In this document: positions 2,612-50,598 of the stretch, piece after piece
How positions within the stretch are numbered: the first letter of the stretch is position 1
Layout of the letters: each line of letters opens with the position of its first letter
Source of the DNA: Chloroflexota bacterium
GTDB taxonomy: Bacteria; Chloroflexota; DTOL01; DAOUCN01
Assembly: GCA_034431995.1 (NCBI GenBank)
Contig: DAOUCN010000125.1
Location: 1 to 51,064, forward strand
Direction: 5' to 3'
Length of the DNA: 51,064 nucleotides
Program-made: the position numbers and the translations under genes
Notes under the pieces: model-generated
What the model was told of the DNA's origin: nothing
The model's input: the letters and a program-made list of their open reading frames with translations, nothing else
Database searches by the model: none

Positions 2612-2654
2612 CTCGTCGGGCCTCCGGCCCTCCGAGGGCCTGGGGTTTGAGCCC
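2612..2654 (-). repeat. Dispersed bipartite element, copy a
   Basis: Minus-strand reading GGGCTCAAACCCCAGGCCCTCGGAGGGCCGGAGGCCCGACGAG; hairpin GGGCC-GGA-GGCCC. Confidence 0.85.
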
Positions 2655-2860
2655 TCCCGGCCATCGCAGGGCCAGACAACCAGATCCCTAGAGCTAACTG
2701 TTCTCGTAGGGGCTGACTGGGGCTGACTCATCCCAGATCCTCGGGGGCTAGAGGGAAAGGGGCCACTCGCACTATTCACTATCGCCCCAGGGTCGTCACT
2801 GATCCAGTGGATCTCAGATCAAGCGAGCAAGCGACAGGGAACAGTGGCCCCGAGTCCACA

Positions 2861-3211
2861 TTACGCCTGGTGGTTCTTGACGACGATGCCCAGGGCCTGG
2901 CACGCCCGGAAGGCGTGGTAGCGGAAGTGGCCCTTGGGGCAGTTGGCGAAGTCCGCGCTGCGGGACAGGGTCACGATGGCGCGGTTGGTACGCGCATCGA
3001 GGCGCCGAAAGGCGTTGCGAGGGAGGGCGTTGGCCCGGATGACGCCGGTGATGGAGGTCTTGAGGGCCTTGGCAGCGGCATCGCCCTTCGTGCTCTCGGG
3101 GCCACGCAAGCCGGTCAGGACATCCCAGAGCTTGGTCTTCTCGCTGTCCTCCACGTCGGGGCTGACGAGGAAGGCGTCAATGGCGTCGAGCATCTCACGG
3201 CTGGTGAGCAT
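2861..3211 (-). CDS. Hypothetical protein (116 aa)
   Basis: ORF 2861..3226 trimmed to the ATG at 3211 behind AAAGGAGA. The track start at 3226 is a TTG. Confidence 0.7.
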   Translation of the reverse strand: MLTSREMLDAIDAFLVSPDVEDSEKTKLWDVLTGLRGPESTKGDAAAKALKTSITGVIRANALPRNAFRRLDARTNRAIVTLSRSADFANCPKGHFRYHAFRACQALGIVVKNHQA

Positions 3212-3239
3212 AGGGTCTCCTTTCAAGAGAACTAGCCTG

Positions 3240-3326
3240 CTAGTGGTTGTACCATCCCGAGATCAGCAGGAAGACCAGCAGGATGGTGTAGATCACGGCT
3301 GCGACACTTCGTTCTCGGTCACTCAC
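3240..3326 (-). CDS. Possible 28-aa single-pass membrane peptide (VSDRERSVAAVIYTILLVFLLISGWYNH)
   Basis: GTG start overlapping a 4-codon mini-ORF that carries the GGGAGG RBS. Below the ORF-track size cutoff; translated by hand. Confidence 0.25.
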   Translation of the reverse strand: MSDRERSVAAVIYTILLVFLLISGWYNH

Positions 3327-3381
3327 GGCACCCTCATAGGAACCTCCCTGTTGTTTGCCGGCAAATGTGTGGGTCGCTGGG

Positions 3382-4644
3382 TCAGTCGGACAGGGGGAGA
3401 GAGCGACCGCTCTTGGTCCCTGCCACGCTGGACAACCGCCGCTTGGGACGCGGGGAGTCCAATGCGTAGTTTGGCGAGGCGAAGCAGAGCTCTTCGAGCA
3501 GGCTGGCGTACTTCTTGGCGTGCCGCTTGGTCATGGGTGGGGTGTAACAGCCCGTCTCCAGGACACGCACGGCCATGATCTCGCCAGGGAGGTAGCGCTC
3601 ACGGCACCACTTGGCAGAGAGTTCTGCGAGGTCACGGCCACAGAAGAGGCAGCCGGTGAGCTCAACCAGGGAGTAGTAGACGCCACAACTCTGACAGACC
3701 TGACAGCCATCGAGGCCGTTGAGGATCTGGAGGGACTTCTGGCGCACCTTTATGCTCCCGAACACCTTCCAGGGCAGGTGCCGACCCCTGATGCTGGCGG
3801 TTCCTCGTGGTGTGTCGGTGCCCTTCCCCTTGGAACCGCTGCTGTACTGGGTGGAGTAGGGCTTCATAGGGGACGCGCAGGCCATGGGTCCCGTGTAAGC
3901 GGTGAAGATGCGGTCGGAGAAGGCCAGCGTGGTGTCGGTGGTGCAGAGCATGGCATTGCCGTCCACATAGTACAGCCTGCGGTTCTCCAGTGAGGCGTAG
4001 GTCTCGATGTGGAAGCCAGCGAGACGAGCCGCAGAGAGCAGGGAGGACTCGGTGGAGGCCCAGACGACAGCGAAGGGCTTCTTGCCGAAACGGCCACCAC
4101 CACCGAGACCTTTGCCGTAGAACAGCTGGGCGACGGTCAGCTGCCCGTGGTACATTCGGCACAGGTAGGTGCGGAGGGGGTTGCGCTGGTCCATGTACTC
4201 GATGGCGCCGTAGCAGGACACCTCGGAGAGGTCCTTGCCCTCAGCGATGTGGGCGAAGATGTGCTGGGAATCGACATCGAAAGAGCGATTGTGCTGTCGC
4301 TGCAGGCTGTCGTGGTTGTACACGACGCCATTGTGGGCACCAATGATGTGATCGTGGGTGAAGGGGTGGTTGTTGGCGATGACGTGGGCACCAATGGTCT
4401 TGGCTCGTGTGTGGAGCATCATGGCGTGGTAGGCGCCGAAGATGTGGGAGTCGAGACTGTCAGTGAGACGAGTCTCACACTTCAGAATCTCGATGTCGTG
4501 GGCGAAGGGACGCAGGGCAGCGAAGCCCCAGCCATCCGTGCCACGCCGTTCCATTTCGACGGCTACGACCGAGCAGAACACGGGGAACATGGGTGGCGCC
4601 TGCACGAGATTGTCGCGCAGACGGTATCCGAACAGGCCGCACAT
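3382..4644 (-). CDS. Class-II (Ntn, N-terminal Cys) glutamine-amidotransferase-like enzyme with a C-terminal CxxCxxC...CxxC zinc ribbon (420 aa)
   Basis: Begins MCGLFGY. Contains blocks ERRGTDGWG, LHTRAKTIG..NNHPF, GAHNGVVYNH and DVDSQHIF, arranged as in GlmS/PurF-type GATase domains. TAATG coupling to the upstream gene. Confidence 0.8.
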   Translation of the reverse strand: MCGLFGYRLRDNLVQAPPMFPVFCSVVAVEMERRGTDGWGFAALRPFAHDIEILKCETRLTDSLDSHIFGAYHAMMLHTRAKTIGAHVIANNHPFTHDHIIGAHNGVVYNHDSLQRQHNRSFDVDSQHIFAHIAEGKDLSEVSCYGAIEYMDQRNPLRTYLCRMYHGQLTVAQLFYGKGLGGGGRFGKKPFAVVWASTESSLLSAARLAGFHIETYASLENRRLYYVDGNAMLCTTDTTLAFSDRIFTAYTGPMACASPMKPYSTQYSSGSKGKGTDTPRGTASIRGRHLPWKVFGSIKVRQKSLQILNGLDGCQVCQSCGVYYSLVELTGCLFCGRDLAELSAKWCRERYLPGEIMAVRVLETGCYTPPMTKRHAKKYASLLEELCFASPNYALDSPRPKRRLSSVAGTKSGRSLPLSD

Positions 4645-6062
4645 TAGGCTGCCCTCCTTGTGATAAGCCGGCGGGACTCCGTGACAGGCTCCAGCCAGGC
4701 CAATTGTTGGGAGAGAACGCCGCGGATGTCGGGGGACAGGACGTCCGGGATCTCTCCGTGGACAGACGAGTTGATACGATGGCCGCTGTTGTCGGCCTGA
4801 AGGGTGTAGTGCGCCAGTCTCCGGATTCGGGGACCAGACAGGGTTGGCAACGAGTGGGCCTGGTAGAGCTCGTTCCAGCGCAAGGCGATGTAGTTGCGGA
4901 GGATGGGCGGGAGGACCGCCACCAGCTGCTTGAGCCGCTCACAGGTGTAGTGAATACCCTCGGAGGAGAAAATCCGGAGGGTGCTCCAGCTGGGGACGGT
5001 GGCGAAGTTGGGCACGTCAGGGAACAGGGAGTCCAGATCGCTGTCCCGCATGGTGTAGGCGAGGTCTGCGAGGGTCGCCATCAAGGCAGCCCAGCCGAAC
5101 ATGGCCCAGCCACGCAGTTCGCCAGGGTGGATACGGACTTCCATCGTGCCACGGAAGAGCCAGGAGTGGACGTTCAGGGCACGATAGCGGAGATTGTGGC
5201 TCTGGGAGGCCCGGAGACGAGTCAGGGCGGAGGCAGAGATGCCGGTGCCGTACAGGTCAGTGTAGAGGGCACGCTTGGTAACCGCGACACGCTTGGCCAG
5301 GCTGCGATTGATGCGCCGGTCGAAGGCAGGCCCACAGGGCTGGGAGTAGTGGTTGAAGGCTCGTCCAGGGGAAGCGATGAAGAACAGGGCACGCTCCAAC
5401 CTGGCATAGAGCTTGATGTAGCGAGCAGCGGTCAGCCAGTCGAAATCCCGGCAGTCAACGTGACAGTGCATACCGGCGCGTTCGTTGACGACGCCAGCCT
5501 GGGCCTCGAAGGCGTCACCAAGTTGGGTGAGTTGGCTGTACAGGAAGTCGCCAGCGGCAGGGGAGGTGCGAAGCTCGAAGCCCTCGGTAGGGAGGGAGCC
5601 ATCGTGGCCGATGTCACAGCCCCAGCGATCAGCCACCTTGTTGACGGGAGAGGGAGCCACGCGGGGGTGCAGACCGACGCCACAGCACTCGACTTCGACG
5701 GCAGCGAGGCGAGAAGAGGACCAGACCTGGCGATTCTTCAGGCTGTCGGCGTACCAGAAGCGCCCTTCCGCGTCCCCGGTGTGGCAGACGGCCTGGCGGG
5801 AGGGAGGGGTGTCGAGGGGCAGAGCAGGCCAGTGGTCTCGCCAAGAGGGGAGGAGGACACCAGCACAAGTGTGACAAAGGTCCTGGGAGTTGACGACTAC
5901 CAGGGGCGTGTGGGCCGTCAGGCAGCGGTCGCACCGTGCTCCACCGCAGAGCAGGGGAAACTCGGTGTGACAGGCCGGACAGATGTGGCCGTCACACAGC
6001 GCGCTGGCTGGCGTGGGCCGTTGACAGTATTGACAGGGAACGGGTGGAACGACTCTGGGCAT
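4644..6062 (-). CDS. Amidoligase_2-type (glutamine-synthetase/GCS2-like) COOH-NH2 ligase with N-terminal multi-CxxC zinc ribbons (472 aa)
   Basis: Blocks AAVEVECCG, GHDGSLPTEGFELRTSP and GMHCHVD match the E-x-E / D-G-S..E..SP / H-x-H pattern of the family. The first ~75 aa hold four CxxC pairs. Strong RBS AAAGGAGG before the ATG at 6062. Confidence 0.75.
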   Translation of the reverse strand: MPRVVPPVPCQYCQRPTPASALCDGHICPACHTEFPLLCGGARCDRCLTAHTPLVVVNSQDLCHTCAGVLLPSWRDHWPALPLDTPPSRQAVCHTGDAEGRFWYADSLKNRQVWSSSRLAAVEVECCGVGLHPRVAPSPVNKVADRWGCDIGHDGSLPTEGFELRTSPAAGDFLYSQLTQLGDAFEAQAGVVNERAGMHCHVDCRDFDWLTAARYIKLYARLERALFFIASPGRAFNHYSQPCGPAFDRRINRSLAKRVAVTKRALYTDLYGTGISASALTRLRASQSHNLRYRALNVHSWLFRGTMEVRIHPGELRGWAMFGWAALMATLADLAYTMRDSDLDSLFPDVPNFATVPSWSTLRIFSSEGIHYTCERLKQLVAVLPPILRNYIALRWNELYQAHSLPTLSGPRIRRLAHYTLQADNSGHRINSSVHGEIPDVLSPDIRGVLSQQLAWLEPVTESRRLITRRAA

Positions 6063-6086
6063 TTGAACCTCCTTTCTAGGGGATGG

Positions 6087-7729: not shown

Positions 7730-7876
7730 GGAACCTCCTTTGTGATTGTGTGGATGGATGAGGTGCGGCGCACCGCCATTGTAGCGCGGCGGCCACTACT
7801 ACGTCTCAAGACGCAGCTCTCCCATCCTCTCTCCCTCCCTTCTAGCCGCCGGGGACGGGAGGGCTGGAGCAGGAGT

Positions 7877-7919
7877 TCCGTATACTGCTCTCTCCGTATA
7901 CTGGACGATCCGTATACTG
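7877..7919. promoter_or_regulatory. Three direct repeats of TCCGTATACTG with 16-bp periodicity (operator-like array)
   Basis: Copies at 7877-7887, 7893-7903 and 7909-7919. Located in the divergent intergenic region, between element copy b and the first leftward gene. Confidence 0.6.
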
Positions 7920-7926
7920 GCAAGAC

Positions 7927-7966
7927 CCTTCGCGCTTCGCGCTCAGGGGGCCTGGGGTTTGGGCTC
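7927..7966 (-). repeat. Dispersed bipartite element, copy b (head of the leftward block)
   Basis: Minus-strand reading GAGCCCAAACCCCAGGCCCCCTGAGCGCGAAGCGCGAAGG; hairpin GCGC-GAA-GCGC. Confidence 0.85.
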
Positions 7967-8040
7967 CTCTCTCTCTCTCTCTCTCTAATATGTATATGTG
8001 TTGTGTGTGTGTGTGTGTGTGTGTGTGGAGAGAGAGAGAG
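7967..8040. repeat. Microsatellite cluster: (CT)10 7967-7986, alternating AT/GT stretch, (TG)13 8002-8027, (GA)6 8028-8040
   Basis: Read directly. The (CT) and (GA) runs are mutually complementary, so they form inverted-repeat arms around the TG tract. Confidence 0.95.
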
Positions 8041-8085
8041 GGAGGTCCCCGGCCCCCTACTTGCACAGGGGGGCTGAATTAAAGG

Positions 8086-8458: not shown

Positions 8459-8492
8459 GTCGGCTAACATTACAAGCGAAAGGAGAGAGGTC

Positions 8493-8864
8493 ATGCCCCG
8501 CACCGCAATTCGGAAGCGGCTCTATGGCGTCACGCAGACGCAGTTGGAAGAGGTCTATCAGCTGCGTGAGCAGGCCAAGGAGCTCAAGGCTCATCTTCGG
8601 GTGATCGAGGAGCTCAAGGCTCATCTTCGGGTGATCGAGGATCTCGTAGGAGAGCGAGAGGAGATGATCGTGGATCTCCTCACACACGAGGCATCGGTCG
8701 AGCCCGGCCCCATCACCCCAAACCCCCGCGAGGAGGCTCGTCGGGCACCCAAGTGGAAGGAGGCGTACATCGAGGCATTGGGATTCGAGGCAGCACAGAA
8801 GGTGATCGAAGCCACGAAGCCGCATGTGCGCGTCGTGCTCGATCTGATTCGTACCCACAACTAA
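8493..8864 (+). CDS. Coiled-coil-like hypothetical protein (123 aa) carrying an in-frame 10-codon tandem duplication
   Basis: ORF 8442..8864 trimmed to the ATG at 8493 behind AAAGGAGAGAGG. ELKAHLRVIE occurs twice in tandem. Confidence 0.7.
   Translation: MPRTAIRKRLYGVTQTQLEEVYQLREQAKELKAHLRVIEELKAHLRVIEDLVGEREEMIVDLLTHEASVEPGPITPNPREEARRAPKWKEAYIEALGFEAAQKVIEATKPHVRVVLDLIRTHN
8581..8640 (+). repeat. Perfect 2 x 30-bp tandem duplication inside a CDS
   Basis: AGCTCAAGGCTCATCTTCGGGTGATCGAGG at 8581-8610 and again at 8611-8640. Confidence 0.95.
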
Positions 8865-10983: not shown

Positions 10984-11177
10984 AACTCGTGATTGACGCC
11001 GCGAAGCTGGCCCATGACACCGAGACCGTCGTCGTGGCCTTCGTGAAGATCAACGACAAGCACTCGGGAACGCTGCTGTTCTCGTCCATCGACGAAGCGT
11101 CGGAGTTCATCGGACTGCTGCGACTCGCCATTGAGGAGTCCCTGCCCGAGCACGACCTCGTGGTCTTCCACTCGTAG
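10980..11177 (+). CDS. Hypothetical protein (65 aa)
   Basis: ORF 10896..11177 trimmed to the ATG at 10980 (ATGA overlap with the upstream stop). Confidence 0.6.
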   Translation: MKLVIDAAKLAHDTETVVVAFVKINDKHSGTLLFSSIDEASEFIGLLRLAIEESLPEHDLVVFHS

Positions 11178-11213
11178 CCCAAACCCCAAGCCCGCTGAGG
11201 GCGAAGCCCGAAG
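11177..11213 (+). repeat. Dispersed bipartite element, copy m
   Basis: GCCCAAACCCCAAGCCCGCTGAGGGCGAAGCCCGAAG; hairpin GGGC-GAA-GCCC. Followed by AAAGGAG and the ATG at 11228. Confidence 0.85.
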
Positions 11214-11227
11214 CGAAAGGAGAACCG

Positions 11228-12289: not shown

Positions 12290-12471
12290 GTAGCCTGAGA
12301 ATGCTCGCGGCCCAGGTGATGCTGGGACAAGAAGTCTTCGACGCCTGGAAGGCCTGGCAGCGGGGCGACACGACCGAGGCTCAGCTGCTGGAAGAACTCA
12401 ACCAGTCGGTGTTGGTCTACATCGACTCAACCAAGGAGCAACCAAATGGGAATCAAGGTTCCGTGGGGTGA
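12286..12471 (+). CDS. Hypothetical protein (61 aa)
   Basis: ORF track; ATGA overlap with the upstream stop. Confidence 0.5.
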   Translation: MSSLRMLAAQVMLGQEVFDAWKAWQRGDTTEAQLLEELNQSVLVYIDSTKEQPNGNQGSVG

Positions 12472-13760: not shown

Positions 13761-14038
13761 GCGGCCGGAACGAGGTCCGTCAGGCGGGCATCATCTTCAC
13801 CGAGGACGAGATCAACCTGCTGCTCGACTGTGTGAAGCACCGCATGACGAAGATGCAACGCATGTCCCGCTGGCACCGACTCACGCAGAACCTGGTCAAC
13901 TCCCACGAGTACGTCCGTCTGCTCAAGCTGCGGACCATGCTATCGCTCGGGCTGGTCAGTAGCCAATTGGCTAAATCTCCGCTCGGCGTTCCGCCTCGCG
14001 GGGCTCGGGGTTTGAGCTCCCCACCGGAGGACGCATGA
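13757..14038 (+). CDS. Hypothetical protein (93 aa)
   Basis: ORF 13745..14038 trimmed to the ATG at 13757 (ATGA overlap). Its 3' end runs through element copy c. Confidence 0.55.
   Translation: MSGRNEVRQAGIIFTEDEINLLLDCVKHRMTKMQRMSRWHRLTQNLVNSHEYVRLLKLRTMLSLGLVSSQLAKSPLGVPPRGARGLSSPPEDA
13982..14020 (-). repeat. Dispersed bipartite element, copy c (inverted relative to local transcription)
   Basis: Minus-strand reading GGAGCTCAAACCCCGAGCCCCGCGAGGCGGAACGCCGAG; hairpin GGCG-GAA-CGCC. Confidence 0.85.
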
Positions 14039-17677: not shown

Positions 17678-17856
17678 TGCCCATTCGAGACAAGGCCGGC
17701 GTGACGGCGATGCCCTGTGGCTGCGCCATCATCTACGAGTGGAACGAGCTCGAAGGCTTTACGGCGTTCGACCTTCGCCTGTGTGGCGAGGTCCACCGCC
17801 CGAAGCCCAAGAGCCCAAACCCCGAGCCCGCCGAGGACGAAGTCCGAGGCGACTAG
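17677..17856 (+). CDS. Small Cys-containing protein (59 aa, MPIRDKAGVTAMPCGCAIIYEW...)
   Basis: Translated by hand (one codon below the track cutoff). TGATG coupling to the helicase-like gene with GAGGAGGA upstream. Its 3' end contains element copy n. Confidence 0.4.
   Translation: MPIRDKAGVTAMPCGCAIIYEWNELEGFTAFDLRLCGEVHRPKPKSPNPEPAEDEVRGD
17811..17849 (+). repeat. Dispersed bipartite element, copy n
   Basis: GAGCCCAAACCCCGAGCCCGCCGAGGACGAAGTCCGAGG; hairpin GGAC-GAA-GTCC. Confidence 0.8.
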
Positions 17857-20383: not shown

Positions 20384-20424
20384 CCCCTCGGCCTTGCGGC
20401 CTCGGGGGGCCTGGGGTTTGGCCC
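20384..20424 (-). repeat. Dispersed bipartite element, copy d
   Basis: Minus-strand reading GGGCCAAACCCCAGGCCCCCCGAGGCCGCAAGGCCGAGGGG; hairpin GGCC-GCAA-GGCC. It fills the 60-bp gap between two large genes. Confidence 0.85.
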
Positions 20425-25384: not shown

Positions 25385-25424
25385 GCTCAAACCCCAAGCC
25401 CCTGGAGGCCGACAGGCCGACAGG
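25385..25424 (+). repeat. Dispersed bipartite element, copy l (inverted relative to local transcription)
   Basis: GCTCAAACCCCAAGCCCCTGGAGGCCGACAGGCCGACAGG; hairpin GGCC-GACA-GGCC. It occupies the whole 41-bp gap between two genes. Confidence 0.85.
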
Positions 25425-26966: not shown

Positions 26967-27009
26967 CTCGCTTCGGCCTGGCGGCCTCAGCGGGCCTGGG
27001 GTTTGAGGC
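26967..27009 (-). repeat. Dispersed bipartite element, copy e
   Basis: Minus-strand reading GCCTCAAACCCCAGGCCCGCTGAGGCCGCCAGGCCGAAGCGAG; hairpin GGCC-GCCA-GGCC. Followed by GAGGAGG and the ATG at 26956. Confidence 0.85.
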
Positions 27010-31056: not shown

Positions 31057-31101
31057 CTCTTCGCTCGCTGCGCTCGCTCAGAGGGCCTGGGGTTTGAGCC
31101 C
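31057..31101 (-). repeat. Dispersed bipartite element, copy f (hairpin replaced by a direct repeat)
   Basis: Minus-strand reading GGGCTCAAACCCCAGGCCCTCTGAGCGAGCGCAGCGAGCGAAGAG, followed immediately by ATG. Confidence 0.8.
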
Positions 31102-35806: not shown

Positions 35807-36065
35807 TCAGCGCCTCCTCCTCTTTGACTGGTGCAGTCACTGACCCGCTCAGTCTCTTCAGGGCTGCGTACTCTCCCCGCAGCGTTGGGATCTGCTCCAG
35901 GTCGCCAGCCGGATCGGCTAGCCGTTCGAGTACCCGGTGCTGTTGGTCATCAATCCACTCGAGCAAGGAACGATAGGCGAGTGGATTCTGGCACAAAAAG
36001 TCACGCCAGAACAGGATATCCCCGTCGGGCTTCGCCCTCCGGGGGCTCGGGGTTTGGGCGGTCAT
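35712..36065 (-). CDS. Hypothetical protein (117 aa); N-terminus encoded by element copy g, 3' end overlaps the scaffold gene by 95 nt
   Basis: ORF track; ATGA overlap with the portal stop. Confidence 0.5.
   Translation of the reverse strand: MTAQTPSPRRAKPDGDILFWRDFLCQNPLAYRSLLEWIDDQQHRVLERLADPAGDLEQIPTLRGEYAALKRLSGSVTAPVKEEEALNAFKARAKGAQVESRPRDPGEQRAGGVRFRE
36022..36061 (-). repeat. Dispersed bipartite element, copy g
   Basis: Minus-strand reading CCGCCCAAACCCCGAGCCCCCGGAGGGCGAAGCCCGACGG; hairpin GGGC-GAA-GCCC. Confidence 0.85.
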
Positions 36066-39766: not shown

Positions 39767-39998
39767 CGAAGGTGTCCTGCCACAAATCTCCTCGGCCTTC
39801 GGCCTCGGAGGGCTCGGGGTTTGAGCCGTCATCGTCCCACACAAGCTGCTGCGGGTAGAGCGTCTGCGGGTACGGGTTGGCGTTCCTCGGGGGGTAGGAA
39901 TAGACGAATTGGTAGGAGTCGCCCCGGTTGATCCACCACACGTCCGCTGACGCCAGCCCTGGGAGACCCAGGACCAGCGCCAGGACAAGGACGCGCAT
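39759..39998 (-). CDS. Small secreted protein (79 aa)
   Basis: Signal peptide MRVLVLALVLGLPGLASA. Its 3' end runs through element copy h. Confidence 0.55.
   Translation of the reverse strand: MRVLVLALVLGLPGLASADVWWINRGDSYQFVYSYPPRNANPYPQTLYPQQLVWDDDGSNPEPSEAEGRGDLWQDTFDE
39788..39827 (-). repeat. Dispersed bipartite element, copy h
   Basis: Minus-strand reading GGCTCAAACCCCGAGCCCTCCGAGGCCGAAGGCCGAGGAG; hairpin GGCC-GAA-GGCC. Confidence 0.85.
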
Positions 39999-45671: not shown

Positions 45672-46990
45672 CAGAGGGTCTCCCATCCGGTCTCGTCGCG
45701 GATTTGGGCGATCCGGTCCCGTCCAACGAGGTATTCCCCCTCGAAGAAGGTCCGGCCATCCCAGATGTGACTCAGTTTCACGTCAAAGGCTCCAGTCTTC
45801 TGGTCCGACCGTACCATGCCGAAGCCCTGCTGCCAATTCTGGAGTGCGTTGACGCCCGGAACGAACCCATCGAGGCGGCAGATGCACCCGGGCGAGTACC
45901 CCACGTACTGAGAAGCGCCCTGATGGTCGTGCAGGGTGCGGGACGCCTCCCCAACACGGTGGATGTGGCCCATCATGAAGCTGAATCGGACCGTTTCGAG
46001 CACCGATTCGAGGGTCTGCTGGGTCTTGGGGCGGTGTTTGTCGCCGTGGATGAAGGCGAAGTGGGGCGTCAGCCAGTAGATGTTGTCCGGATAGCCCCCA
46101 ACGTAGGTCACGCCGAGGCTCTTGAGGTCGATCATCCCCGGCACGGAGAGGAGTTTCTCGTTCTCGTTGAACGGGGAGAGCAGCGCGGAGTAGGGCAGGG
46201 CCACGCTGGCGGCCAGATCCCATAGTCGGCGCTCGTGGTTGCCTTCCAGGTAGACGATCTCAGCGTCCGGCGACGCGATCCGTAGCTGCGCGAGCCACCA
46301 ACCGAGCTCTCGGAGGGCTGGCTGAAGGGTAAAGAAGTGCTCCGGACGTCGGCGGTACTTGATAGTGAACTCGGTGACGTCCACCATGTCCCCCAGGAGG
46401 ACGATCTTGGTCGGCCGGGTGCGCTCCGCGACCTGGACACAGACGTCCCAGGCCCGTCGGTCGTGCATCGGGGTCAGACGCCCGGTCTTCAGGTCCCGCT
46501 CGTAGCCGTTCTGCGAGTCCGGGATGACGAGCGTGACGTCTTGACTCTTCGGCGCTTCGCGCCTCAGAGGGCTTGGGGTTTGAGCATTCCGACGGATGAT
46601 GAAGGTGACCGGCTTCGGGGTCTCGGGGGCGGCGGCAGCGCGGACGAACCAGACCTTGATCTGGTAGGCGGGGCTCCCGTCGGCCAGGGTCCAGTTGTTC
46701 CCGAGCCAGTGATCGACCGTCCAGACGGCCGGATCGACCTTCAGGAGGGCAAGGAAGTCCTCCAGGGTCGGCGGCGACGTGACGAACGTGCCGGTGGCGT
46801 AAGCAACGTGACCGTCCTGCTCGAATGACGGCGTACGGTTGACTTCGGGTTTGCGGGCACCCGACGCCCGCCAGGCCGCCTTCTGTCGAGACCGGCACCG
46901 ACGGTGCTGGTTCCGAGTGGGCTGGCCCGAACCGGGGTGGATGGGTTCTTTGCAGATCGAGCAGATACCCGCCGGGGTCACGGCGGGCAT
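45671..46990 (-). CDS. Calcineurin-like metallophosphoesterase with an extra N-terminal domain (439 aa)
   Basis: Motifs VIPDSQ, LLGDMVD, EGNHE, FIHGD and MGHIH in canonical order. Element copy i sits in frame in the inter-domain linker. Confidence 0.75.
   Translation of the reverse strand: MPAVTPAGICSICKEPIHPGSGQPTRNQHRRCRSRQKAAWRASGARKPEVNRTPSFEQDGHVAYATGTFVTSPPTLEDFLALLKVDPAVWTVDHWLGNNWTLADGSPAYQIKVWFVRAAAAPETPKPVTFIIRRNAQTPSPLRREAPKSQDVTLVIPDSQNGYERDLKTGRLTPMHDRRAWDVCVQVAERTRPTKIVLLGDMVDVTEFTIKYRRRPEHFFTLQPALRELGWWLAQLRIASPDAEIVYLEGNHERRLWDLAASVALPYSALLSPFNENEKLLSVPGMIDLKSLGVTYVGGYPDNIYWLTPHFAFIHGDKHRPKTQQTLESVLETVRFSFMMGHIHRVGEASRTLHDHQGASQYVGYSPGCICRLDGFVPGVNALQNWQQGFGMVRSDQKTGAFDVKLSHIWDGRTFFEGEYLVGRDRIAQIRDETGWETL
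46547..46585 (-). repeat. Dispersed bipartite element, copy i (inside the phosphoesterase CDS, in frame)
   Basis: Minus-strand reading GCTCAAACCCCAAGCCCTCTGAGGCGCGAAGCGCCGAAG; hairpin GGCGC-GAA-GCGCC. Encodes ...AQTPSPLRREAPK... Confidence 0.85.
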
Positions 46991-46993
46991 GCG

Positions 46994-47158: not shown

Positions 47159-47499
47159 CACTCAGTCTCCTTCTTGTTCGCTGCGATGGCTCGATCGATC
47201 TTGTGCTCGATCCGTTCTAGCTGTTTGACGACGTGGGGTAGGGCGCCTTGGATCTCTGCGATCTTCTCGCCGTGTGCGGCTCCGGTCTTGGTCAGTTCGT
47301 TGATCGAGTTGTTGACGTTGGTCAGCCATAGCACACAGCCAGAGCTAATCAAAGCAGCAATGATGCCAAGCACCCACTTGAGGGCCGGGTCCATGCTCGG
47401 GGGCGGCGGGAACTCGTGGTTGTGCTCGTCGAGAACAGTCAGACGTTTACCATGCGGCGTGTGCTCGCTACCGTTGAGTGATTCCGCCGTGTCTATCAT
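47158..47499 (-). CDS. Membrane-anchored coiled-coil protein (113 aa)
   Basis: ORF track; TM segment WVLGIIAALISSGCVLWL followed by a helical tail. Confidence 0.6.
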   Translation of the reverse strand: MIDTAESLNGSEHTPHGKRLTVLDEHNHEFPPPPSMDPALKWVLGIIAALISSGCVLWLTNVNNSINELTKTGAAHGEKIAEIQGALPHVVKQLERIEHKIDRAIAANKKETE

Positions 47500-48109
47500 C
47501 CCACTCCCGCATTCGCCGCTCGATGTGTGCCGGTCCCGCTCCTGACTGGCGCAAGTAGCGTGCCAGTGCGTCTCGCTCTGCGTTCTTTAGAGCAGGTGCC
47601 GTCCGTTTGGGCAAGAGGGAACACGCCGAGGCTAGGGCATCGACGAGGTCTACGGTCTGGCCCATCGGGTGGGAGCGGAGCTCAGCCAAGAGCTCGACCT
47701 GGCTATCCTGCACGAACAGGCGGCCCTGCGCTATGATGGGCTGGAGGATCGAGCGGTTGCGGAAGTACTTGTCGATCTTGTTGGACTGCGGGACGCCCTG
47801 GAGGTTCAAGCGCTGGTTGGTGAAGCGGGCCTCGCGCCGGAGGGAGCCGCCGAAGAGGGAAGCCAGGCCGTTCTCCTCGATGCCGAAGATGATGGGCCTG
47901 AACTGGATGTTGATGCGGAAGATGTTCTCGATGATCCGGTCGGTCGAGGCGCGCTCGGCCCAGGTGTTCAGGACGAAGATCCGCTGCAGCCAGTCCTGAC
48001 CGACGGTCACGACGGCGGTGCGGGCGCGGGTCTTCTTCACGGTCTGCTTCCCGCCAGCGGGGTCGCAGAACGAGACGATGTCCGCGAGGCTACTGACGGG
48101 CTGTTCCAT
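47468..48109 (-). CDS. terL: Terminase large subunit, C-terminal RNase-H-like nuclease half as a separate ORF (213 aa)
   Basis: Acidic triad context FCDPAGG, FGIEENG and VDLVDAL in the usual order. Confidence 0.75.
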   Translation of the reverse strand: MEQPVSSLADIVSFCDPAGGKQTVKKTRARTAVVTVGQDWLQRIFVLNTWAERASTDRIIENIFRINIQFRPIIFGIEENGLASLFGGSLRREARFTNQRLNLQGVPQSNKIDKYFRNRSILQPIIAQGRLFVQDSQVELLAELRSHPMGQTVDLVDALASACSLLPKRTAPALKNAERDALARYLRQSGAGPAHIERRMREWDDRHGGITQR

Positions 48110-48392
48110 GTCGTGCGCGGCGGATCACACGCACTCGCCGAATGCAGCCGTGCGGGATGGCGAAGTAGCCGTTGGCCTCGTCGTGGCCGCGTCCAGCATC
48201 GCCCAGGAGGAGCGACAGGACGAGGTCCTTCTTGGTGGAGCCGATGATGTAGCCGGCTGCGCGGCAAGCCTGAGAGGTGGCGCGAGAGGCTTCCCCGCCG
48301 TCGGTCCAGGCGCTGTAGACGGCCGGATCGTCGAACTCGACTTCGATGATGGAGAACTGAGGCAGTTTGGGACCCTTGGTCAGTTTGGTCAT
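48090..48392 (-). CDS. Hypothetical 100-aa ORF nested between the two terminase halves
   Basis: ATGA overlap with the ATPase-half stop and a 20-nt overlap with the nuclease-half start. Protein-like composition. No domain recognised. Confidence 0.5.
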   Translation of the reverse strand: MTKLTKGPKLPQFSIIEVEFDDPAVYSAWTDGGEASRATSQACRAAGYIIGSTKKDLVLSLLLGDAGRGHDEANGYFAIPHGCIRRVRVIRRARHGTARQ

Positions 48393-49543
48393 GCGGACCG
48401 TCCTTTCCGGTGTTTGAAGAACTCGTCTCGTCCCAGTAGACGATCATACGAGTGCTTCGTCAAGCGCTGTCCCCGCAGGGGCTTGTGCTCGGCGGAAGGG
48501 GTAAAACGGGCGCGGTCCTCGGTCAGGGCGTCGAGCGGGGACTCCTCGAAAACCAGTTGATTATCCAGGACTTGGAAGCGACGCAGCAGCGTCATGTCGA
48601 AGTCCACGAGGTCGGGGTCCCCGGCGGAGTTCATGTAGAGGAGGGGAAACATGGTCCGCATCTCGCGCTGCAGGCGCTGCAGGGACTCTAGGGAGAATCG
48701 CTCGGGGAAGATGGGCTTGCCGTCCTCGATGGCCGCGCGACGCATGACCTCGACGGAATCGTCGGTGTCCATCAGCTGCTCGTAGATGTCTCCGATGGCC
48801 CAGCGCGTCCCAGTGATGATCTCCAGGGACTTGTCGGGATCATCCATCAGGGCGCGGCTGGTGGCATGCCAGTCCACGGTAGACTGCATGATGGTGGGGG
48901 AGTTGGCCGACTCCAAGTCGATCAGGTCGTCGAAGTAGTGAACGTTGAAGTGGTAGCCGGCGATGGTGCCGCCCACGCCGATGGTCTCGACCGAGGCCTC
49001 CTTGAAGATCTCCGGACGGGGCAGGAGGATGCGCTCAGCGTTCCAGTATTTGGCCTGGCGCTTCGGCTCGTCCCAAACGCGGTCGGGCCAGAGGGCCTTC
49101 AGAATCTGGTTGCTCTCGTAGACCATCATGATCTCGGAGAGGGTGGAGCGCGAGAGGTCGGCTGTCTTGGAGCCGAGGAGGATGCGGGTCGAGCGGCCAT
49201 CGGAGTGGCCGAGGTTGCCGACGCCGTCGGGGAACCAGACGTTGGCGCCGTCCGGCTGGATCAGCAGGTGAATGACGGCCGCCTTGCAGATGGTCGTCTT
49301 CAGGTGATCGCGGGGCATCAGCAGGAGTTTCCGGTAGGGCGGAACCCTCTGGAGCCAGTTGCAGACGGGGAGATGGAGGGAGGGCGAGAGGAGGCTGTAG
49401 CCCATCACCCCCTTGGCGAAGACGAAGAGGTTCGCCTCAGCCTGCTTCTTGAAGTCCGCGACGAACTGCCCGGCCTGTGTACTACCAGCCTGACGAACCT
49501 GGCCCGTGCGCGCGTCGAGGACCAGTTCCCTGGCGTCCATCAC
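48389..49543 (-). CDS. terL: Terminase large subunit, N-terminal ATPase half (384 aa; start GTG 49543 or ATG 49540)
   Basis: Walker-A-like MPRDHLKTT, Walker B HYFDDLID, coupling motif ITGTRW, and FPERFSLESLQRL...LYMNS. Confidence 0.8.
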   Translation of the reverse strand: MMDARELVLDARTGQVRQAGSTQAGQFVADFKKQAEANLFVFAKGVMGYSLLSPSLHLPVCNWLQRVPPYRKLLLMPRDHLKTTICKAAVIHLLIQPDGANVWFPDGVGNLGHSDGRSTRILLGSKTADLSRSTLSEIMMVYESNQILKALWPDRVWDEPKRQAKYWNAERILLPRPEIFKEASVETIGVGGTIAGYHFNVHYFDDLIDLESANSPTIMQSTVDWHATSRALMDDPDKSLEIITGTRWAIGDIYEQLMDTDDSVEVMRRAAIEDGKPIFPERFSLESLQRLQREMRTMFPLLYMNSAGDPDLVDFDMTLLRRFQVLDNQLVFEESPLDALTEDRARFTPSAEHKPLRGQRLTKHSYDRLLGRDEFFKHRKGRSA

Positions 49544-49632: not shown

Positions 49633-50180
49633 CAGACCTCCTCCGCTTCTGCCGCTTCCTTCTCAGCCAGGAAGGTGGCGAACTCGTCTACGTTGGCCAG
49701 GGGAACGGTCTCGAACTCCGCGTCGATGACCGGGACGGGCTTGCCGCTGGCCTGGGCCACGGCGGTGACCATCGCCTGCAGGGAGCGCTCGTCCAGGGAA
49801 ATGTGGATGGTCTTCTCCTCGGACTTGTGCTCGACCTTGGGGTAGAGACGGTCCACGTCGGTGGAGATGTCACGGGCCGCCTGGAGGCGAATGGAGTCCA
49901 TCGCCTTGTCGTTGTCCCGGAGGTTGACCTTGAACTCGAAGTTCTTGATGACCTCCTGGCGGATGCGCTCCAGGAAGTCCGCGAAGGTCATGTCGTGCAG
50001 GGAGCTCCGGAGCTCGTTCAGCTGCGCGACGAACAGGGGGGAGTTGATGATGGTGGAGACGCGGTTCGCGTGGTAGCCCAGGGCGTCCGCGATGTCCTTG
50101 GTGCGCTTGCCGGCGAGCACCATGTAGAGCATCAGCTGATGCCTCTGGTTCACCCGAGCAATCTTATTCGCGCCTGACAT
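49632..50180 (-). CDS. Small-terminase-like HTH protein (182 aa)
   Basis: ORF 49632..50249 trimmed to the ATG at 50180. HTH-like GKRTKDIADALGYHANRVSTI. Lies immediately upstream of terL. Confidence 0.6.
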   Translation of the reverse strand: MSGANKIARVNQRHQLMLYMVLAGKRTKDIADALGYHANRVSTIINSPLFVAQLNELRSSLHDMTFADFLERIRQEVIKNFEFKVNLRDNDKAMDSIRLQAARDISTDVDRLYPKVEHKSEEKTIHISLDERSLQAMVTAVAQASGKPVPVIDAEFETVPLANVDEFATFLAEKEAAEAEEV

Positions 50181-50195
50181 GTGCCCCCGATAGTA

Positions 50196-50242
50196 CAAGG
50201 CGGCCGGACTTACCTCCCAGTAAGAGGGGGCCGACCGCCTTG
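50196..50242 (-). promoter_or_regulatory. Structured leader stem-loop between the promoter and the small-terminase start
   Basis: CAAGGCGGCCGG (50196-50207) pairs with CCGACCGCCTTG (50231-50242) at 11 of 12 positions. Inner CTTAC/GTAAG stem. Confidence 0.5.
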
Positions 50243-50243
50243 T

Positions 50244-50260
50244 GCCCAAACCCCAGAGCC
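50244..50260 (+). repeat. Box-only partial copy (k) of the dispersed element
   Basis: GCCCAAACCCCAGAGCC; no adjacent hairpin. Confidence 0.5.
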
Positions 50261-50266
50261 ATCTCC

Positions 50267-50295
50267 ATTCTAGCGAACGTGAGACTCGGTGTCAA
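50267..50295 (-). promoter_or_regulatory. Near-consensus sigma70-type promoter reading leftward into the terminase operon
   Basis: Minus strand: TTGACA (50295-50290), 17-nt spacer, TAGAAT (50272-50267). Confidence 0.65.
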
Positions 50296-50385
50296 GCGGT
50301 TCCGCGTCGCGGCGGAAGAGAAAGACGAGATCGACGGCGTGGCCGTGGTGGCGGAACATCCGGACGAGTTCCCGGCCCTGCTGGA

Positions 50386-50423
50386 GCAGACGGACGGCCA
50401 CCTCGGGGTCAGCCGTCCGCTGC
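50386..50423 (-). terminator. GC-rich stem-loop just after the stop of the 55-aa ORF (terminator-like, no U-tract)
   Basis: GCAGACGGACGGC / GCCGTCCGCTGC: 12 bp with one bulge and a 13-nt loop. Confidence 0.35.
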
Positions 50424-50430
50424 CACCAGA

Positions 50431-50598
50431 TCAGCACTTTTTGCCTTTGCCCTTCTTCTTCTTCTTCATGGCATACTCCTTGAAGTTGTAGAGCCCATAT
50501 CGCTTCGCGCTGGCGCGCTCAGCGGGCTCGGGGTTTGAGCTGATTGGGCCGACCAGCCCGATGGTGGCGAGTCCCCAGCCCAGCAGGAGATCGGTCAC
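50431..50598 (-). CDS. Small protein with an N-terminal hydrophobic segment and a poly-Lys tail (55 aa, VTDLLLGWGLATIGLVG...AMKKKKKGKGKKC)
   Basis: GTG start at 50598 overlapping the upstream stop (GTGA). An alternative short start is the ATG behind AAGGAG, giving MKKKKKGKGKKC. Contains element copy j. Confidence 0.35.
   Translation of the reverse strand: MTDLLLGWGLATIGLVGPISSNPEPAERASAKRYGLYNFKEYAMKKKKKGKGKKC
50501..50540 (-). repeat. Dispersed bipartite element, copy j
   Basis: Minus-strand reading GCTCAAACCCCGAGCCCGCTGAGCGCGCCAGCGCGAAGCG; hairpin GCGC-GCCA-GCGC. Confidence 0.85.

Follow-up and report, generated by a model that had tools for sequence, protein, structure and literature searches.

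A conserved, strand-specific box-and-hairpin element dispersed through a previously undescribed 51-kb phage genome

The stoperators of cluster A mycobacteriophages and the start-associated sequences of cluster K are short, invariant, asymmetric sites that are dispersed mostly through small intergenic gaps, are oriented with transcription, and have one copy at the main promoter. Structured sites are also found in phage messages: the lambda nut site (boxA + boxB), present twice per phage, combines a linear box with a small hairpin behind it, the loop of which is closed by G...A, and T7 carries about ten structured intercistronic RNase III sites along its long operons. Other sites act as DNA. In the podovirus tf, the genome of which is 46 kb long, one strand carries 14 nicks, and a 9-bp consensus marks each of them (PMC3517423). 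The GCGNAGC/GCGNNAGC motifs known as mini-hairpin DNA occur in the G4 primer site, in RSF1010 ssiA, and in the N4 early promoters (2026 review, PMC13037366). In ssiA, RepB' contacts six single-stranded nucleotides 5' of the hairpin (nt 7-27) as well as the first C-G pair, and begins the primer in the 3' tail (PMC8567376), while the hairpin of a G4-type origin marks the primase start on SSB-coated single-stranded DNA, and the hairpin promoters of N4 are recognized in their single-stranded form by the virion RNA polymerase, which starts RNA synthesis there (PMC13037366).

The window analyzed here (the whole stretch of DNA, 51,064 nt) is a complete and previously undescribed 51-kb phage genome, and it contains a real, conserved, strand-specific signal. 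A preliminary description of this DNA had listed 13 full copies and one box-only copy, k, all of which we confirm (Table 1), and its core observation proves to be real and stronger than first stated. The box, CAAACCCC, occurs 15 times, compared to 1.44 expected, and none of 100 dinucleotide shuffles reaches 15. Thirteen of these 15 sites belong to a full element, GCY-CAAACCCC-RRGCC followed by a hairpin of the form C-NNN-GA-[4-5 bp]-GNA or GNNA loop-[..]-GA-N'N'N'-G; the 15th site, at 8719(+), has no hairpin and scores 8.8 bits in our covariance model, which is noise. A strict box-plus-hairpin template finds 12 copies in the genome (it leaves out the nested variant, f) and none in 50 shuffles, and the hairpin template without the box never occurs in the genome. 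The covariance model recovers the 13 copies at 40-70 bits (E 1e-11 to 1e-21), with the next match at 9.5 bits.

Table 1. Copies of the element, the box-only copy k, and the associated promoter, in order of position; R1, R2 and R3 are close relatives of this phage.
Feature	Coordinates	Strand	Sequence or structure	Score (bits)	Context
a	2612..2652	-	GCT-CAAACCCC-AGGCC, hairpin C TCG GA GGGCC GGA GGCCC GA CGA G	51.6	15 nt from its end to ATG at 2597, SD between; R1 and R2 orthologues have other stems
b	7926..7964	-	C CCT GA GCGC GAA GCGC GA AGG G	65.1	Divergent control region, upstream of 3x CAGTATACGG operators; ~170 nt upstream of conserved -10 (TACAAT) of leftward operon
m	11177..11215	+	C GCT GA GGGC GAA GCCC GA AGC G	67.9	Occupies gap from TAG stop to SD/ATG at 11228
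c	13979..14017	-	C CGC GA GGCG GAA CGCC GA GCG G	64.9	Last codons of ORF 13745-14038, antisense to + gene block, directly before DNA polymerase start
n	17813..17851	+	C GCC GA GGAC GAA GTCC GA GGC G	66.3	3' end of final + strand ORF, convergent junction with late genes
d	20384..20423	-	C CCC GA GGCC GCAA GGCC GA GGG G	62.3	Between genes for 1155 aa and 835 aa; ATG 19 nt on
l	25385..25424	+	C CTG GA GGCC GACA GGCC GA CAG G	62.5	Exactly fills 41-nt gap between two leftward genes; orientation opposite to both
e	26969..27008	-	C GCT GA GGCC GCCA GGCC GA AGC G	61.3	Between TGA stop and SD/ATG; same junction in R3 without element
f	31057..31099	-	Nested variant, two tandem-GA modules, GCA loop: TCT-GA-GC-GA-GC-GCA-GC-GA-GC-GA-AGA	40.0	Adaptor gene ATG 1 nt after; nested form also in R1
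g	36021..36059	-	C CCG GA GGGC GAA GCCC GA CGG G	65.8	Codons 3-16 (MTAQTPSP...) of ORF 35712-36065, whose ATG overlaps portal stop codon
h	39788..39826	-	C TCC GA GGCC GAA GGCC GA GGA G	70.3	Boundary ahead of M15-peptidase (endolysin-like) gene
i	46545..46585	-	C TCT GA GGCGC GAA GCGCC GA AGA G	53.8	In frame (AQTPSPLRREAPKS) inside 439-aa phosphoesterase-like ORF, in variable linker
k	50244..50260	+	Box only (GCCCAAACCCCAGAGCC), without hairpin		Reversed relative to transcription
Sigma-70 promoter	50267..50295	-	TTGACA-17-TAGAAT, near-consensus, 11/12 matches		Heads terminase/late operon; conserved in R1 and R2
j	50501..50540	-	C GCT GA GCGC GCCA GCGC GA AGC G	63.9	Right-end region, poorly conserved, probably non-coding; strong promoter ~200 bp downstream

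The hairpin had been described as a conserved GAG, a GC stem and loop, and a GA(A/G)G, which overlooked that the inner stem is flanked by an outer covarying 3-bp stem and an invariant closing C-G pair, and that the conserved 'GAG...GA' represents tandem G·A pairs (5'-GA/3'-AG). The helices are 9-10 pairs long. The loops, previously given as GAA or 4 nt, are GNA triloops in 25 of 33 parsed hairpins and GNNA tetraloops in the other eight (only two of which are GNRA), and are closed by C-G in 28/33. Copy f, which had been read as a direct repeat, is instead a version of this hairpin in which a second GA/GA module is nested. The hairpin is preceded by an invariant, C-rich 5' segment, GCYCAAACCCCRRGCC, and followed by a short 3' tail, G-W-N-W-N-G, with T (19) or A (14) at its +2 position. 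The complementary arms that were thought to flank the box are paired about as much as in shuffles (76.3% vs 76.0%) and do not covary, and there is no support for the suggestion that they expose AAACCCC in a loop.

Scanning this genome and its relatives with the covariance model, a check proposed in the preliminary description, gave a total of 38 copies across four genomes, this one and those of the close relatives R1, R2 and R3, with orthologous copies at syntenic sites that carry different stems in different genomes. Across these copies, 98.8% of the positions concerned are paired, seven of seven pairs have changed on both sides, and the covariation score is 0.76, compared to 0.15 in shuffles, with slid controls about 40% paired; a G·U pair occupies only 1 of 258 cells. 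Compensatory stem changes are present both within the genome and between orthologues, which strongly supports selection on a structure formed by single-stranded DNA or RNA, as was originally claimed. All 38 copies have a perfect box, at protein identities between genomes of 63-84%. The element is restricted to one subclade, within which copy e is missing in R3 and an extra copy, x, is found in R2; zero copies were found in five relatives that are more distant but share the gene order.

The copies are far more evenly spaced than expected by chance (interval CV = 0.33, P = 2e-5 to 6e-5). They are split 10:3 between the strands, with a minus-strand copy roughly every 5 kb genome-wide, these ten ranking among the 2 most even of 286 subsets, and plus-strand copies in the 8-27 kb region only. 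Eleven of the 13 (rather than ten, as first counted) are oriented with the local genes, the exceptions being c and l, whose antisense orientation is kept in R1 and R2 for c and in R1 for l. In five cases (a, m, d, e and f), orthologues included, the element takes up precisely the space from a stop codon to the following Shine-Dalgarno sequence (SD), which in these five begins 4-5 nt past the hairpin. The element also tolerates coding sequence, as g and i are translated, the latter mid-gene: the reading frame of g is preserved in R1 and R3 despite indels, and the linker containing i has the same length in three genomes, the element overwriting the existing linker with no added length. Finally, k covers approximately +8 to +24 of the transcript from the 50267..50295(-) promoter, the leader of which contains the box complement; the 17 nt of k are the same in R1 and R2, while the adjoining bases are variable.

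Compared with the systems above, the element looks most like sites where primers or transcripts start on single-stranded DNA, and our best guess, which we put forward tentatively, is that it may be a strand-specific single-stranded-DNA priming or initiation signal, a role absent from those considered previously and which we now place first. The RSF1010 (IncQ) signals ssiA and ssiB are likewise ~40 nt long and strand-specific, and are active only as single-stranded DNA; ssiA comprises a 5' recognition segment, a ~21-nt hairpin with a cGAAg mini-hairpin tip, and a 3' start tail (PMC8567376, PMC13037366), and in the phage element, too, the 5' segment and the closing C-G pair are the invariant parts, with the stem variable. 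However, ssiA and ssiB are present once each, on opposite strands at a single origin, whereas the phage element has 13 copies over 51 kb, a longer (~16 nt) recognition segment of unrelated sequence, and a hairpin with tandem G·A pairs, and a RepB'-like primase was not found. The DnaG-dependent complementary-strand origins of G4, St-1 and alpha3 are similar in that a stable, SSB-free hairpin carries GCGAAAGC- or GCGTTAGC-type mini-hairpins, but G4 is a single-stranded-DNA phage with a single origin of three hairpins, which lacks the invariant C-rich box and has zero sequence similarity to the element.

On the model of the ssi signals or of the G4 complementary-strand origin, the element would be read as single-stranded DNA in three parts, namely the invariant 5' segment, the hairpin with its fixed C-G pair, and the 3' tail, with the tip of the hairpin predicted to be an unusually stable DNA-type mini-hairpin that combines tandem sheared G·A pairs with a loop of the c-GNA-g or c-GNNA-g type. 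Once unwinding has exposed the strand and the phage SSB has covered it, the hairpin would remain folded and mark an entry site, at which a primase or other initiating polymerase, either from the host or an unrecognized phage enzyme, would bind the box and begin a primer. We infer that the active form is DNA and not RNA, and that its partner is a priming enzyme.

Such a priming signal is consistent with the selection on structure, with DNA-like details (the GNA/GNNA loops, which match the mini-hairpin DNA motifs, the C-G closure, and the near absence of G·U), with the even spacing, and with an indifference to translation, copy c lying antisense in a coding tail. The phage also has a replication gene set (PolA, P-loop helicase, DUF669-type SSB, annealase and exonuclease) with no recognizable primase in its genome, and it has canonical sigma-70 promoters and U-tract hairpin terminators that are separate from the element. 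Against this, a box-reading priming enzyme was not found, and the distant relatives have the same replication genes without the element and without a recognizable primase, such that the element is not required by this type of replisome generally. In addition, the 3' tail lacks a single conserved template base, the co-orientation with genes and the five filled gaps have the look of an mRNA element, and k is left without explanation at a strong promoter. RNA, too, has tandem G·A pairs and G...A-closed loops, and short stems may not tolerate G·U.

Nearly as likely, and likewise tentative, is a cis-acting RNA element in polycistronic mRNAs. Here, the binding partner of the single-stranded box would be either a phage or host factor with sequence specificity or the complementary 5' leader from the 50295 promoter, and the hairpin, directly 5' of the next ribosome-binding site, would act as a barrier or insulator that stabilizes the downstream (or upstream) message or sets translation of the next gene; alternatively, the element could reload a factor for elongation or antitermination at intervals of about 4 kb. 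The sense-strand majority and the precise fit of the five gap-filling copies favor this, as does the fact that the GA/GA pairs and G...A loops, which are purine-specific features, belong to the transcribed-sense strand. When the box strand is folded as RNA, the hairpin is recovered, several copies having z-scores between -2.3 and -3.7, and the transcript of the strongest promoter opens with a 17-nt complement of the box, which three genomes conserve. The mRNA processing or 5'-stabilizing hairpin suggested earlier suits the five stop-to-SD copies, but not the translated g and i or the antisense c and l, and it is a poor fit for b and j because these lie upstream of their nearest conserved promoters. 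Further points against an RNA element are the position of n at a convergent 3' end, the scarcity of G·U, and the predominance of triloops and non-GNRA tetraloops; an Rfam search gave zero matches even at E = 1, an RNA-binding partner was not found, and each sub-model (stabilizer, processing site, nut-like site) suits at most about 8 of the 13 copies. The nut site shares the order of box and small G...A-loop hairpin, but is untranslated and N-dependent, in contrast to an element of which two copies are translated and two antisense, and the RNase III sites of T7, although similarly multiple and intercistronic along operons, need ~20 bp of duplex.

We consider it unlikely that the element is a DNA-level site for a protein other than a primase, either a one-strand nick, as in T5, phiKMV-like phages and Pseudomonas phage tf, or a stoperator-like regulator site, in which case the regulator would also control the 50295 promoter through k. 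The box is invariant, asymmetric, dispersed, evenly spaced and mainly on one strand, and phage tf offers a precedent in a podovirus genome with around a dozen strand-specific short-consensus sites, terminal repeats, and convergent gene blocks (PMC3517423). However, the nick consensus has no hairpin, the tf nicks are on one strand, uneven, and clustered in one genome half, and no nickase, HUH or HNH protein was found when searched for in this genome. The likeness to stoperators and start-associated sequences, raised in the preliminary description, holds for dispersal, invariance of the box, gap location, orientation, and a copy at the main promoter, where the hairpin-less k is operator-like. 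It does not account for the strand-specific hairpin: those sites are 13-14 bp, duplex protein-binding or translation-linked, without a covarying hairpin, of unrelated sequence, and from another host group, and a duplex-binding protein has no need of such a hairpin.

Less probable again is a phage-specific promoter, in which the box would be read by an unrecognized phage RNA polymerase or sigma-like factor, with the hairpin at the transcript 5' end, or in which the DNA hairpin itself would be the promoter, as in N4. Some 20 conserved positions followed by a structure, at 13 sites spread like T7 promoters and often 1-30 nt ahead of a start codon, would suit this, and in N4 the early promoters are formed by DNA hairpins, which have stems of 5-7 bp and GGA or GAA triloops (PMC13037366). 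Nevertheless, N4 has approximately three such promoters, clustered at its early end, and requires a 3,500-aa virion polymerase, whereas the phage element spans all gene classes and has a long conserved box 5' of the hairpin. No RNA polymerase or sigma factor was found by Pfam, PHROGs, NCBIfam and PDB sequence searches or motif scans, and the large uncharacterized virion proteins have homologues in element-free relatives. Moreover, canonical host promoters lie elsewhere in the genome, three or four conserved copies would fire antisense, with c, l and n yielding antisense RNA, g is located 3' of the start codon that it would be expected to serve, and the would-be promoter region is GC-rich and hard to melt.

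A selfish, REP-like miniature repeat that spread in the subclade ancestor with no function for the phage is very improbable. Its confinement to one subclade, its position at gene boundaries in both orientations, the variable presence of e and x, and a box-plus-palindrome layout reminiscent of REP elements would fit, but this is contradicted by the perfect box and compensatory changes at orthologous sites in diverged genomes, by the replacement of existing linker with copy i at no gain in length, and by the non-random spacing; the stems are unlike between copies, such that the copies are not recent, and a transposase was not found in the genome. Least likely of all is a terminator, attenuator, or programmed -1 frameshift signal, despite the GC-rich hairpin at gene ends (n closes the + block) and the match of AAACCCC to X XXY YYZ with a 6-nt spacer and hairpin behind it, a layout that resembles frameshift sites in the frame SNPEP of h, n and j, as the element has no U-tract, of the kind found in the canonical terminators elsewhere in the genome, copies are found at the heads of operons and within an ORF that looks essential, translation in the shifted frames yields no conserved product, and most copies follow a stop codon, so that ribosomes would never reach the heptamer.

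The earlier interpretation is partly supported overall. Taking the single-stranded-DNA priming signal as our preferred explanation, the direction of the replication forks can also be inferred, although the positive GC skew of the plus strand, if replication-derived, suits rightward and not leftward forks, and both the fork directions and the division into two series are post hoc. With these qualifications, c and l would be members of two regular series and not exceptions, and the ten minus-strand and three plus-strand copies may represent hard-wired start sites for discontinuous-strand synthesis in this phage.

The dispersed element, a conserved C-rich box followed by a hairpin, is a real, conserved and clearly selected feature of this genome. 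Its core, CAAACCCC, occurs 15 times in the window against 1.44 occurrences expected, a count reached by no shuffle. All 13 full copies (a-j, l, m and n) listed in the preliminary description were found in place, and a strict box-plus-hairpin template matched 12 times in the window (copy f being a nested variant) and in 0/50 shuffles, while the hairpin template without a box did not occur at all. A covariance model built from 10 copies scored the 13 at 40-70 bits, with the next match in the window at 9.5 bits. The fifteenth core, inside an early ORF, has no hairpin, scores 8.8 bits with the model and is probably a chance match.

Protein searches recovered three close relatives carrying the element: R1, a 53-kb Logan contig (portal 81%, family-A DNA polymerase, PolA, 84% identical); R2, in JGI and ENA contigs (PolA 70% identical); and R3, a JGI contig (portal 73% identical). 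The model found 13 copies in R1, 9 in 31 kb of R2 and 3 in 15 kb of R3, at scores of 28-66 bits, with no further match above 15 bits in these relatives. Every copy in the window, as well as the box-only copy k, has an orthologue in R1 at the same junction and in the same orientation, both antisense copies included. The box is identical in 38/38 copies, and the stems differ among orthologues. The covariation proposed earlier extends to these related genomes, with 98.8% of cells paired and 7/7 pairs changed on both sides in the 38-copy alignment, which contains a single G·U pair. The covariation score is 0.762 compared to 0.150 after shuffling, a value reached by 0/500 shuffles, and sliding the partner by 1-3 columns lowers pairing to 33-42%.

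Five distant relatives with the same gene order (R4, in L262/L263, L014, L015, L264 and L265; portal 45-50%, PolA 51% identical) contain no copy and no analogous repeat, as the covariance model, a tandem-GA hairpin scan, k-mer counts and intergenic folding returned ordinary hairpins only; the element is thus an innovation of one subclade. Copy number within this subclade is not fixed, and turnover is rare yet real: copy e is missing from R3 at a compact stop-SD-start junction (L254 13950-13990), and R2 carries one additional co-oriented copy, x, around the homologue of a 494-aa gene (L259 20458-20508). Since e and l are the closest pair in the window, 1.6 kb apart, one copy may stand in for two. 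Exact-pattern scans for CAAACCCCRRGCCCNNNGAG in viral, metagenome and genome collections gave, among the matches listed, single hairpin-less matches only, which we take as chance. None of the 4227 Rfam covariance models matched at gathering thresholds (relaxing E up to 1 brought in only low-complexity miRNA artefacts), and a literature search by sequence string found no earlier description of the motif.

Read on the box strand, the 5′ part of the element is G-C-Y, the core and R-R-G-C-C, followed by a hairpin of the form C-NNN-GA-(4-5 bp)-loop-(4-5 bp)-GA-N′N′N′-G and a W-N-W-N-G tail. The inner stem of the preliminary description stands, to which three outer pairs, covarying in every copy and previously missed, must be added. 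The closing pair joins the last C of 'GCCC' to the G 3′ of the hairpin in 35/35 parsed copies, and the two conserved GA dinucleotides are opposed as tandem G·A pairs. Copy f, formerly taken for a direct repeat, has the common fold plus a second, nested GA/GA module, as does its R1 orthologue, and in some R2 and R3 copies the outer stem is swapped for another tandem-GA module, C-GA-C / G-GA-G. GNA triloops account for 25/33 loops (GAA 13, GGA 7, GTA 4, GCA 1) and tetraloops for 8/33 (GCCA 4, GCAA 2, GACA 1, GTCA 1), with C-G as the loop-closing pair in 28/33. The short flanking arms once suggested to present the box in a loop show no covariation, being paired in 76.3% of cases against 76.0% in shuffles, and this idea was rejected on that ground. 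The stem sequence is free and the box and closing pair are fixed, and the active form is one strand of defined polarity, with the box strand invariably the one to form the GA/GA pairs and G...A loops.

Positions of the element copies and of other features in the window
Feature	Position	Strand	Remark
Left-end tandem repeats	1-119		4-5 copies of the 17-bp unit CACAGCGACCGAGGTGT
Direct terminal repeat, 85 bp	50979-51063		repeats the window start, 99% identical
Gene block	1-7.8 kb		leftward
Gene block	8.1-17.9 kb		rightward
Gene block	17.9-50.2 kb		leftward
Element copies a-j	2.6, 7.9, 14.0, 20.4, 27.0, 31.1, 36.0, 39.8, 46.5, 50.5 kb	-	
Element copies m, n, l	11.2, 17.8, 25.4 kb	+	
Copies with AAACCCC in the S-N-P-E-P frame	h 39788-39826; n 17813-17851; j 50501-50540		
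Box-only copy k	50244-50260	+	no hairpin
Fifteenth core	8719-8726	+	
Hairpin-plus-U terminators	near 1580; near 13300		
Second non-coding region	1620-1690		~1.65 kb
Amidoligase_2 and class-II glutamine amidotransferase pair; dATP/dGTP diphosphohydrolase-like gene	3382-6062 (-); 13332-13760 (+)		
Divergent control region	7860-8060		
ORF of the SSB-like protein	12446-13114		DUF669 type
ORF with 'primase' PHROG matches	16466-17677		
Conserved ORF	34979-35806		
ORF starting with copy g	35712-36065		
Extended -10	near 40275		TGGTATAAT
Fibre-like proteins	40363-42459; 43336-45306	-	
Large terminase subunit	47468-49543	-	apparently split
Terminase, nuclease part	47468-48109	-	
100-aa ORF	48090-48392		
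Terminase, ATPase part	48389-49543		
Terminase-operon leader	50180-50262	-	~80 nt
Plus-strand ORF	50240-50491	+	rejected
Promoter	50295-50267		TTGACA-17-TAGAAT

The window is a complete phage genome of 51,064 bp with short terminal redundancy, as judged from its direct terminal repeat and left-end tandem repeats. It encodes an SU10-type portal, capsid protein and adaptors, a terminase with its large subunit in two ORFs, PolA with an N-terminal UDG-like domain, a P-loop DUF3987 helicase, a PD-(D/E)XK exonuclease, a Sak4-like annealase, a DUF669-type SSB-like protein, a dATP/dGTP diphosphohydrolase-like protein, and a pair formed by an amidoligase and a glutamine amidotransferase. No near-identical DNA was found among INPHARED phages, and protein relatives in the phage collection reach at most 27% identity; with at least 239 portal homologues in metagenomes (E <= 1e-20), the group is widespread and environmental. 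The ATPase and nuclease parts of the large terminase subunit, both assigned by PHROG 38, flank a small ORF with no function assigned. Taken together, the amidoligase/amidotransferase pair, the diphosphohydrolase-like gene and the UDG-like domain of the polymerase hint that this lineage has modified nucleotides or modified DNA. Two large, Cys- and Gly-rich fibre-like proteins have signal-peptide-like N-termini (MRLLAVLGLLLSLL... and MKRLILALALLLPTMACAQ), unusual among tail fibres, and one of them shows a weak match to a YadA-head repeat.

Copies sit in varied surroundings. Five (a, m, d, e and f) occupy stop-to-SD gaps, 2-8 nt after the stop codon and 1-19 nt ahead of the next SD/ATG. Copy g is translated: the ATG of its ORF overlaps the stop codon of the portal gene, and the reading frame (MTAQTPSP...) runs across the element and continues as a conserved protein, in a frame that R1 and R3 preserve despite indels. 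This minus-strand ORF, itself conserved in R1 and R3, shares 95 nt with the next conserved ORF of that strand, which is read in another frame; the arrangement could reflect overlapping genes or, alternatively, programmed frameshifting within a head-assembly gene. Copy i falls in frame midway through a 439-aa phosphoesterase-like ORF in three genomes, and alignment with homologues lacking the element shows a variable linker of unchanged length at this point; hence the copy was written into a pre-existing linker and not inserted. Copies h and n are found within ORF tails, and j in a poorly conserved right-end region that is probably non-coding. The antisense copies c and l oppose the local genes, c within the coding tail that immediately precedes the polymerase gene and l filling a 41-nt gap, such that 11/13 copies are co-oriented with the genes around them. 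Copy b precedes three putative CAGTATACGG operators, and ~170 nt separate it from a downstream -10 box that all three genomes retain. The divergent control region here has extended (CT)n, (TG)n and (GA)n tracts along with an AT-rich patch, and its three repeats share a palindromic core. Conservation of these repeats extends to R1 and R2, and they resemble operator sites for a distinct regulator; an origin might reside in the low-complexity region. Two more CCGTATACGG sites lie in the second non-coding region, beside a hairpin-plus-U terminator and a TATAAT box.

Genome position outweighs coding context. Intervals between copies range from 1.6 to 6.8 kb with a CV of 0.33, a value this low having P = 6e-5 under random placement and P = 2e-5 under random choice among 62 gene junctions. 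The ten minus-strand copies have a CV of 0.25, and only 2/286 ways of picking 10 of the 13 sites are as even, while the three plus-strand copies are confined to 8-27 kb; R1 shows the same pattern. When the copies are split post hoc into two series, antisense c and l become regular members of these series.

In kind, the element resembles known single-strand initiation signals and hairpin promoters. We tentatively rank first the possibility that it would act as a strand-specific initiation (priming) signal on single-stranded DNA, on the grounds of its loop and pairing type, its layout, its tolerance of coding and antisense positions, and the replication genes of the phage. The evidence leans to DNA rather than RNA as the active strand: triloops dominate, tetraloops are mostly non-GNRA, loops are closed by C-G and G·U is nearly absent. 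The same loop features define the 'mini-hairpin DNA' motifs GCGNAGC and GCGNNAGC, which are unusually stable, bind SSB poorly, and have been reported at the G4 primer site, RSF1010 ssiA and the N4 early promoters (PMC13037366). The layout of the element equals that of ssiA, where the primase RepB′ binds six single-stranded nucleotides 5′ of the hairpin (nt 7-27) together with its first C-G pair, and where the primer starts at T32, within the 3′ tail (PMC8567376). Set beside ssiA/ssiB (PMC8567376), the 38 copies show the same parts: a single-stranded segment for recognition on the 5′ side, a hairpin of ~21 nt in which the first pair is fixed and the tip is a mini-hairpin, and a tail on the 3′ side. 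This likeness is in layout only, as the element has no sequence similarity to the RSF1010 sites. Copies are, moreover, tolerated in translated sequence and antisense, and the phage encodes a polymerase, a helicase and an SSB with no recognisable primase.

On the other side, ssi sites go with a cognate Pri-type primase encoded by their own replicon, and searches by Pfam, PHROGs, NCBIfam and PDB sequence found no primase domain in the phage; no enzyme able to read the box was identified. The 'primase' PHROG matches of one ORF are confined to its P-loop helicase part, and an ORF considered as a primase candidate encodes the DUF669-type SSB-like protein. We note, too, that the element is absent from relatives with the same replisome, that the 3′ tail has no fixed template base, and that fork directions were assigned post hoc, with GC skew giving no clear support. 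Most specifically, a dsDNA podovirus lineage without a recognisable primase would have hard-wired discontinuous-strand priming in cis, through evenly spaced, strand-specific, SSB-resistant mini-hairpins that share one invariant entry box, with 10 on one strand genome-wide and 3 on the other by a putative origin, some forced into protein linkers to keep the spacing; we consider this fuller scenario doubtful.

The main rival to priming is a cis-acting mRNA element, a reading that is rather unlikely in our estimate, if only slightly more so than priming. It draws on the co-orientation of 11/13 copies, on the exact stop-to-SD placement of five, with the SD beginning 4-5 nt after the hairpin, and on a leader RNA complementary to the box, and has to be set against the loop and pairing features that lean to DNA. 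The leader arises at an ordinary promoter that, like the extended -10 near 40 kb, is separate from the element; copy j lies ~200 bp upstream of this promoter, and the transcript opens with GGCTCTGGGGTTTGGGC, the box complement, which is copy k. The 17 nt of k are conserved in R1 and R2, adjoining bases vary, and k may serve as the operator of a protein that binds the box, or may act as an RNA pairing with the boxes. A plus-strand ORF that would co-orient k with a gene was rejected, its conservation in relatives being limited to the promoter part. Downstream of the box complement, the terminase-operon leader contains a long, conserved-looking stem (ACAAGGCGG...CCGCCTTGT) enclosing an SD-like GGGAGG, and may be a regulatory 5′ UTR or small RNA.

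A nick site or regulator-binding site would account for the box and for k, but would leave the hairpin unexplained, and we consider it improbable. Stoperators are asymmetric duplex sites bound by a phage repressor, one of them at the early promoter and all oriented with transcription; here a box-only copy does lie at a promoter, in reversed orientation, 11/13 copies are co-oriented, and the hairpin is foreign to the stoperator family. In phage tf, 14 one-strand nicks occur at a 9-mer with no hairpin (PMC3517423). Still less probable is a phage-specific promoter. N4-type hairpin promoters combine a stem of 5-7 bp with a purine-rich loop of 3 nt; the element has its 25/33 GNA triloops on an inner stem of 4-5 bp, tetraloops in the remaining 8/33, and a helix lengthened by GA pairs and an outer stem. 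For a virion or phage RNA polymerase of the T7-like family, the large ORFs gave neither an RNA_pol domain nor an R-x3-K-x6-7-YG motif, nor any PDB sequence match, and searches of the phage for an RNA polymerase, sigma factor, primase, and HUH or HNH nuclease found none; this reading would, in addition, create 3-4 conserved antisense promoters. The 'GTCAAG' 3′ of the hairpin was rejected as an antisense -35, as no -10 is possible inside the GC-rich hairpin.

It is very unlikely that the element is a selfish repeat, given its orthologous conservation, compensatory change, linker copy and spacing. REP elements with RAYT transposase have a conserved GTAG head, a palindrome, near-identical copies and a RAYT/Y1 transposase gene, whereas here there is no GTAG head, stems differ among copies, and the scanned ORFs gave no Y1_Tnp or HUH match. 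Least probable of all is a terminator or frameshift signal. Downstream of the hairpin comes G-W-N-W-N-G, in no copy a T run, and a terminator scan called 0/13 copies, though it detected U-tract hairpins elsewhere in the genome. A -1 frameshift site needs a zero-frame X XXY YYZ heptamer, separated by a spacer of 5-9 nt from a structure further downstream, and should yield a -1 product that is meaningful; AAACCCC with its 6-nt spacer and hairpin mimics such a site in one frame, but a stop codon precedes most copies, only h, n and j have the heptamer in this frame, and the -1 frames end after ~19 codons with no conserved product. Chi-like, DNA-uptake, attC and CRISPR-repeat-mimic readings were dismissed, as stems vary among copies and no partner repeat pairs with the box.

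Among structured, dispersed cis-signals of uncultivated phage lineages, the element ranks with the cleanest examples: its box is invariant over 8-17 nt, covariation at orthologous sites proves the hairpin, and spacing is even to the point that one copy was written into a protein linker. We know of no genome-wide, evenly spaced set of signals of this kind in a tailed dsDNA phage, and if priming in cis is correct, these copies would be the first genome-wide ssi/G4-type priming signals in one. An initiation signal on single-stranded DNA would mean that tailed phages can specify primer start sites, to our knowledge so far a property of small plasmids and single-stranded DNA phages only, and would account for the working of a replisome that has no primase gene. 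Should the element act as RNA, it would be a new phage regulatory RNA motif with a sequence-specific partner, possibly the complementary leader RNA. Either way, the 13 identical boxes provide a directly testable handle on the gene-expression or replication programme of this phage group.
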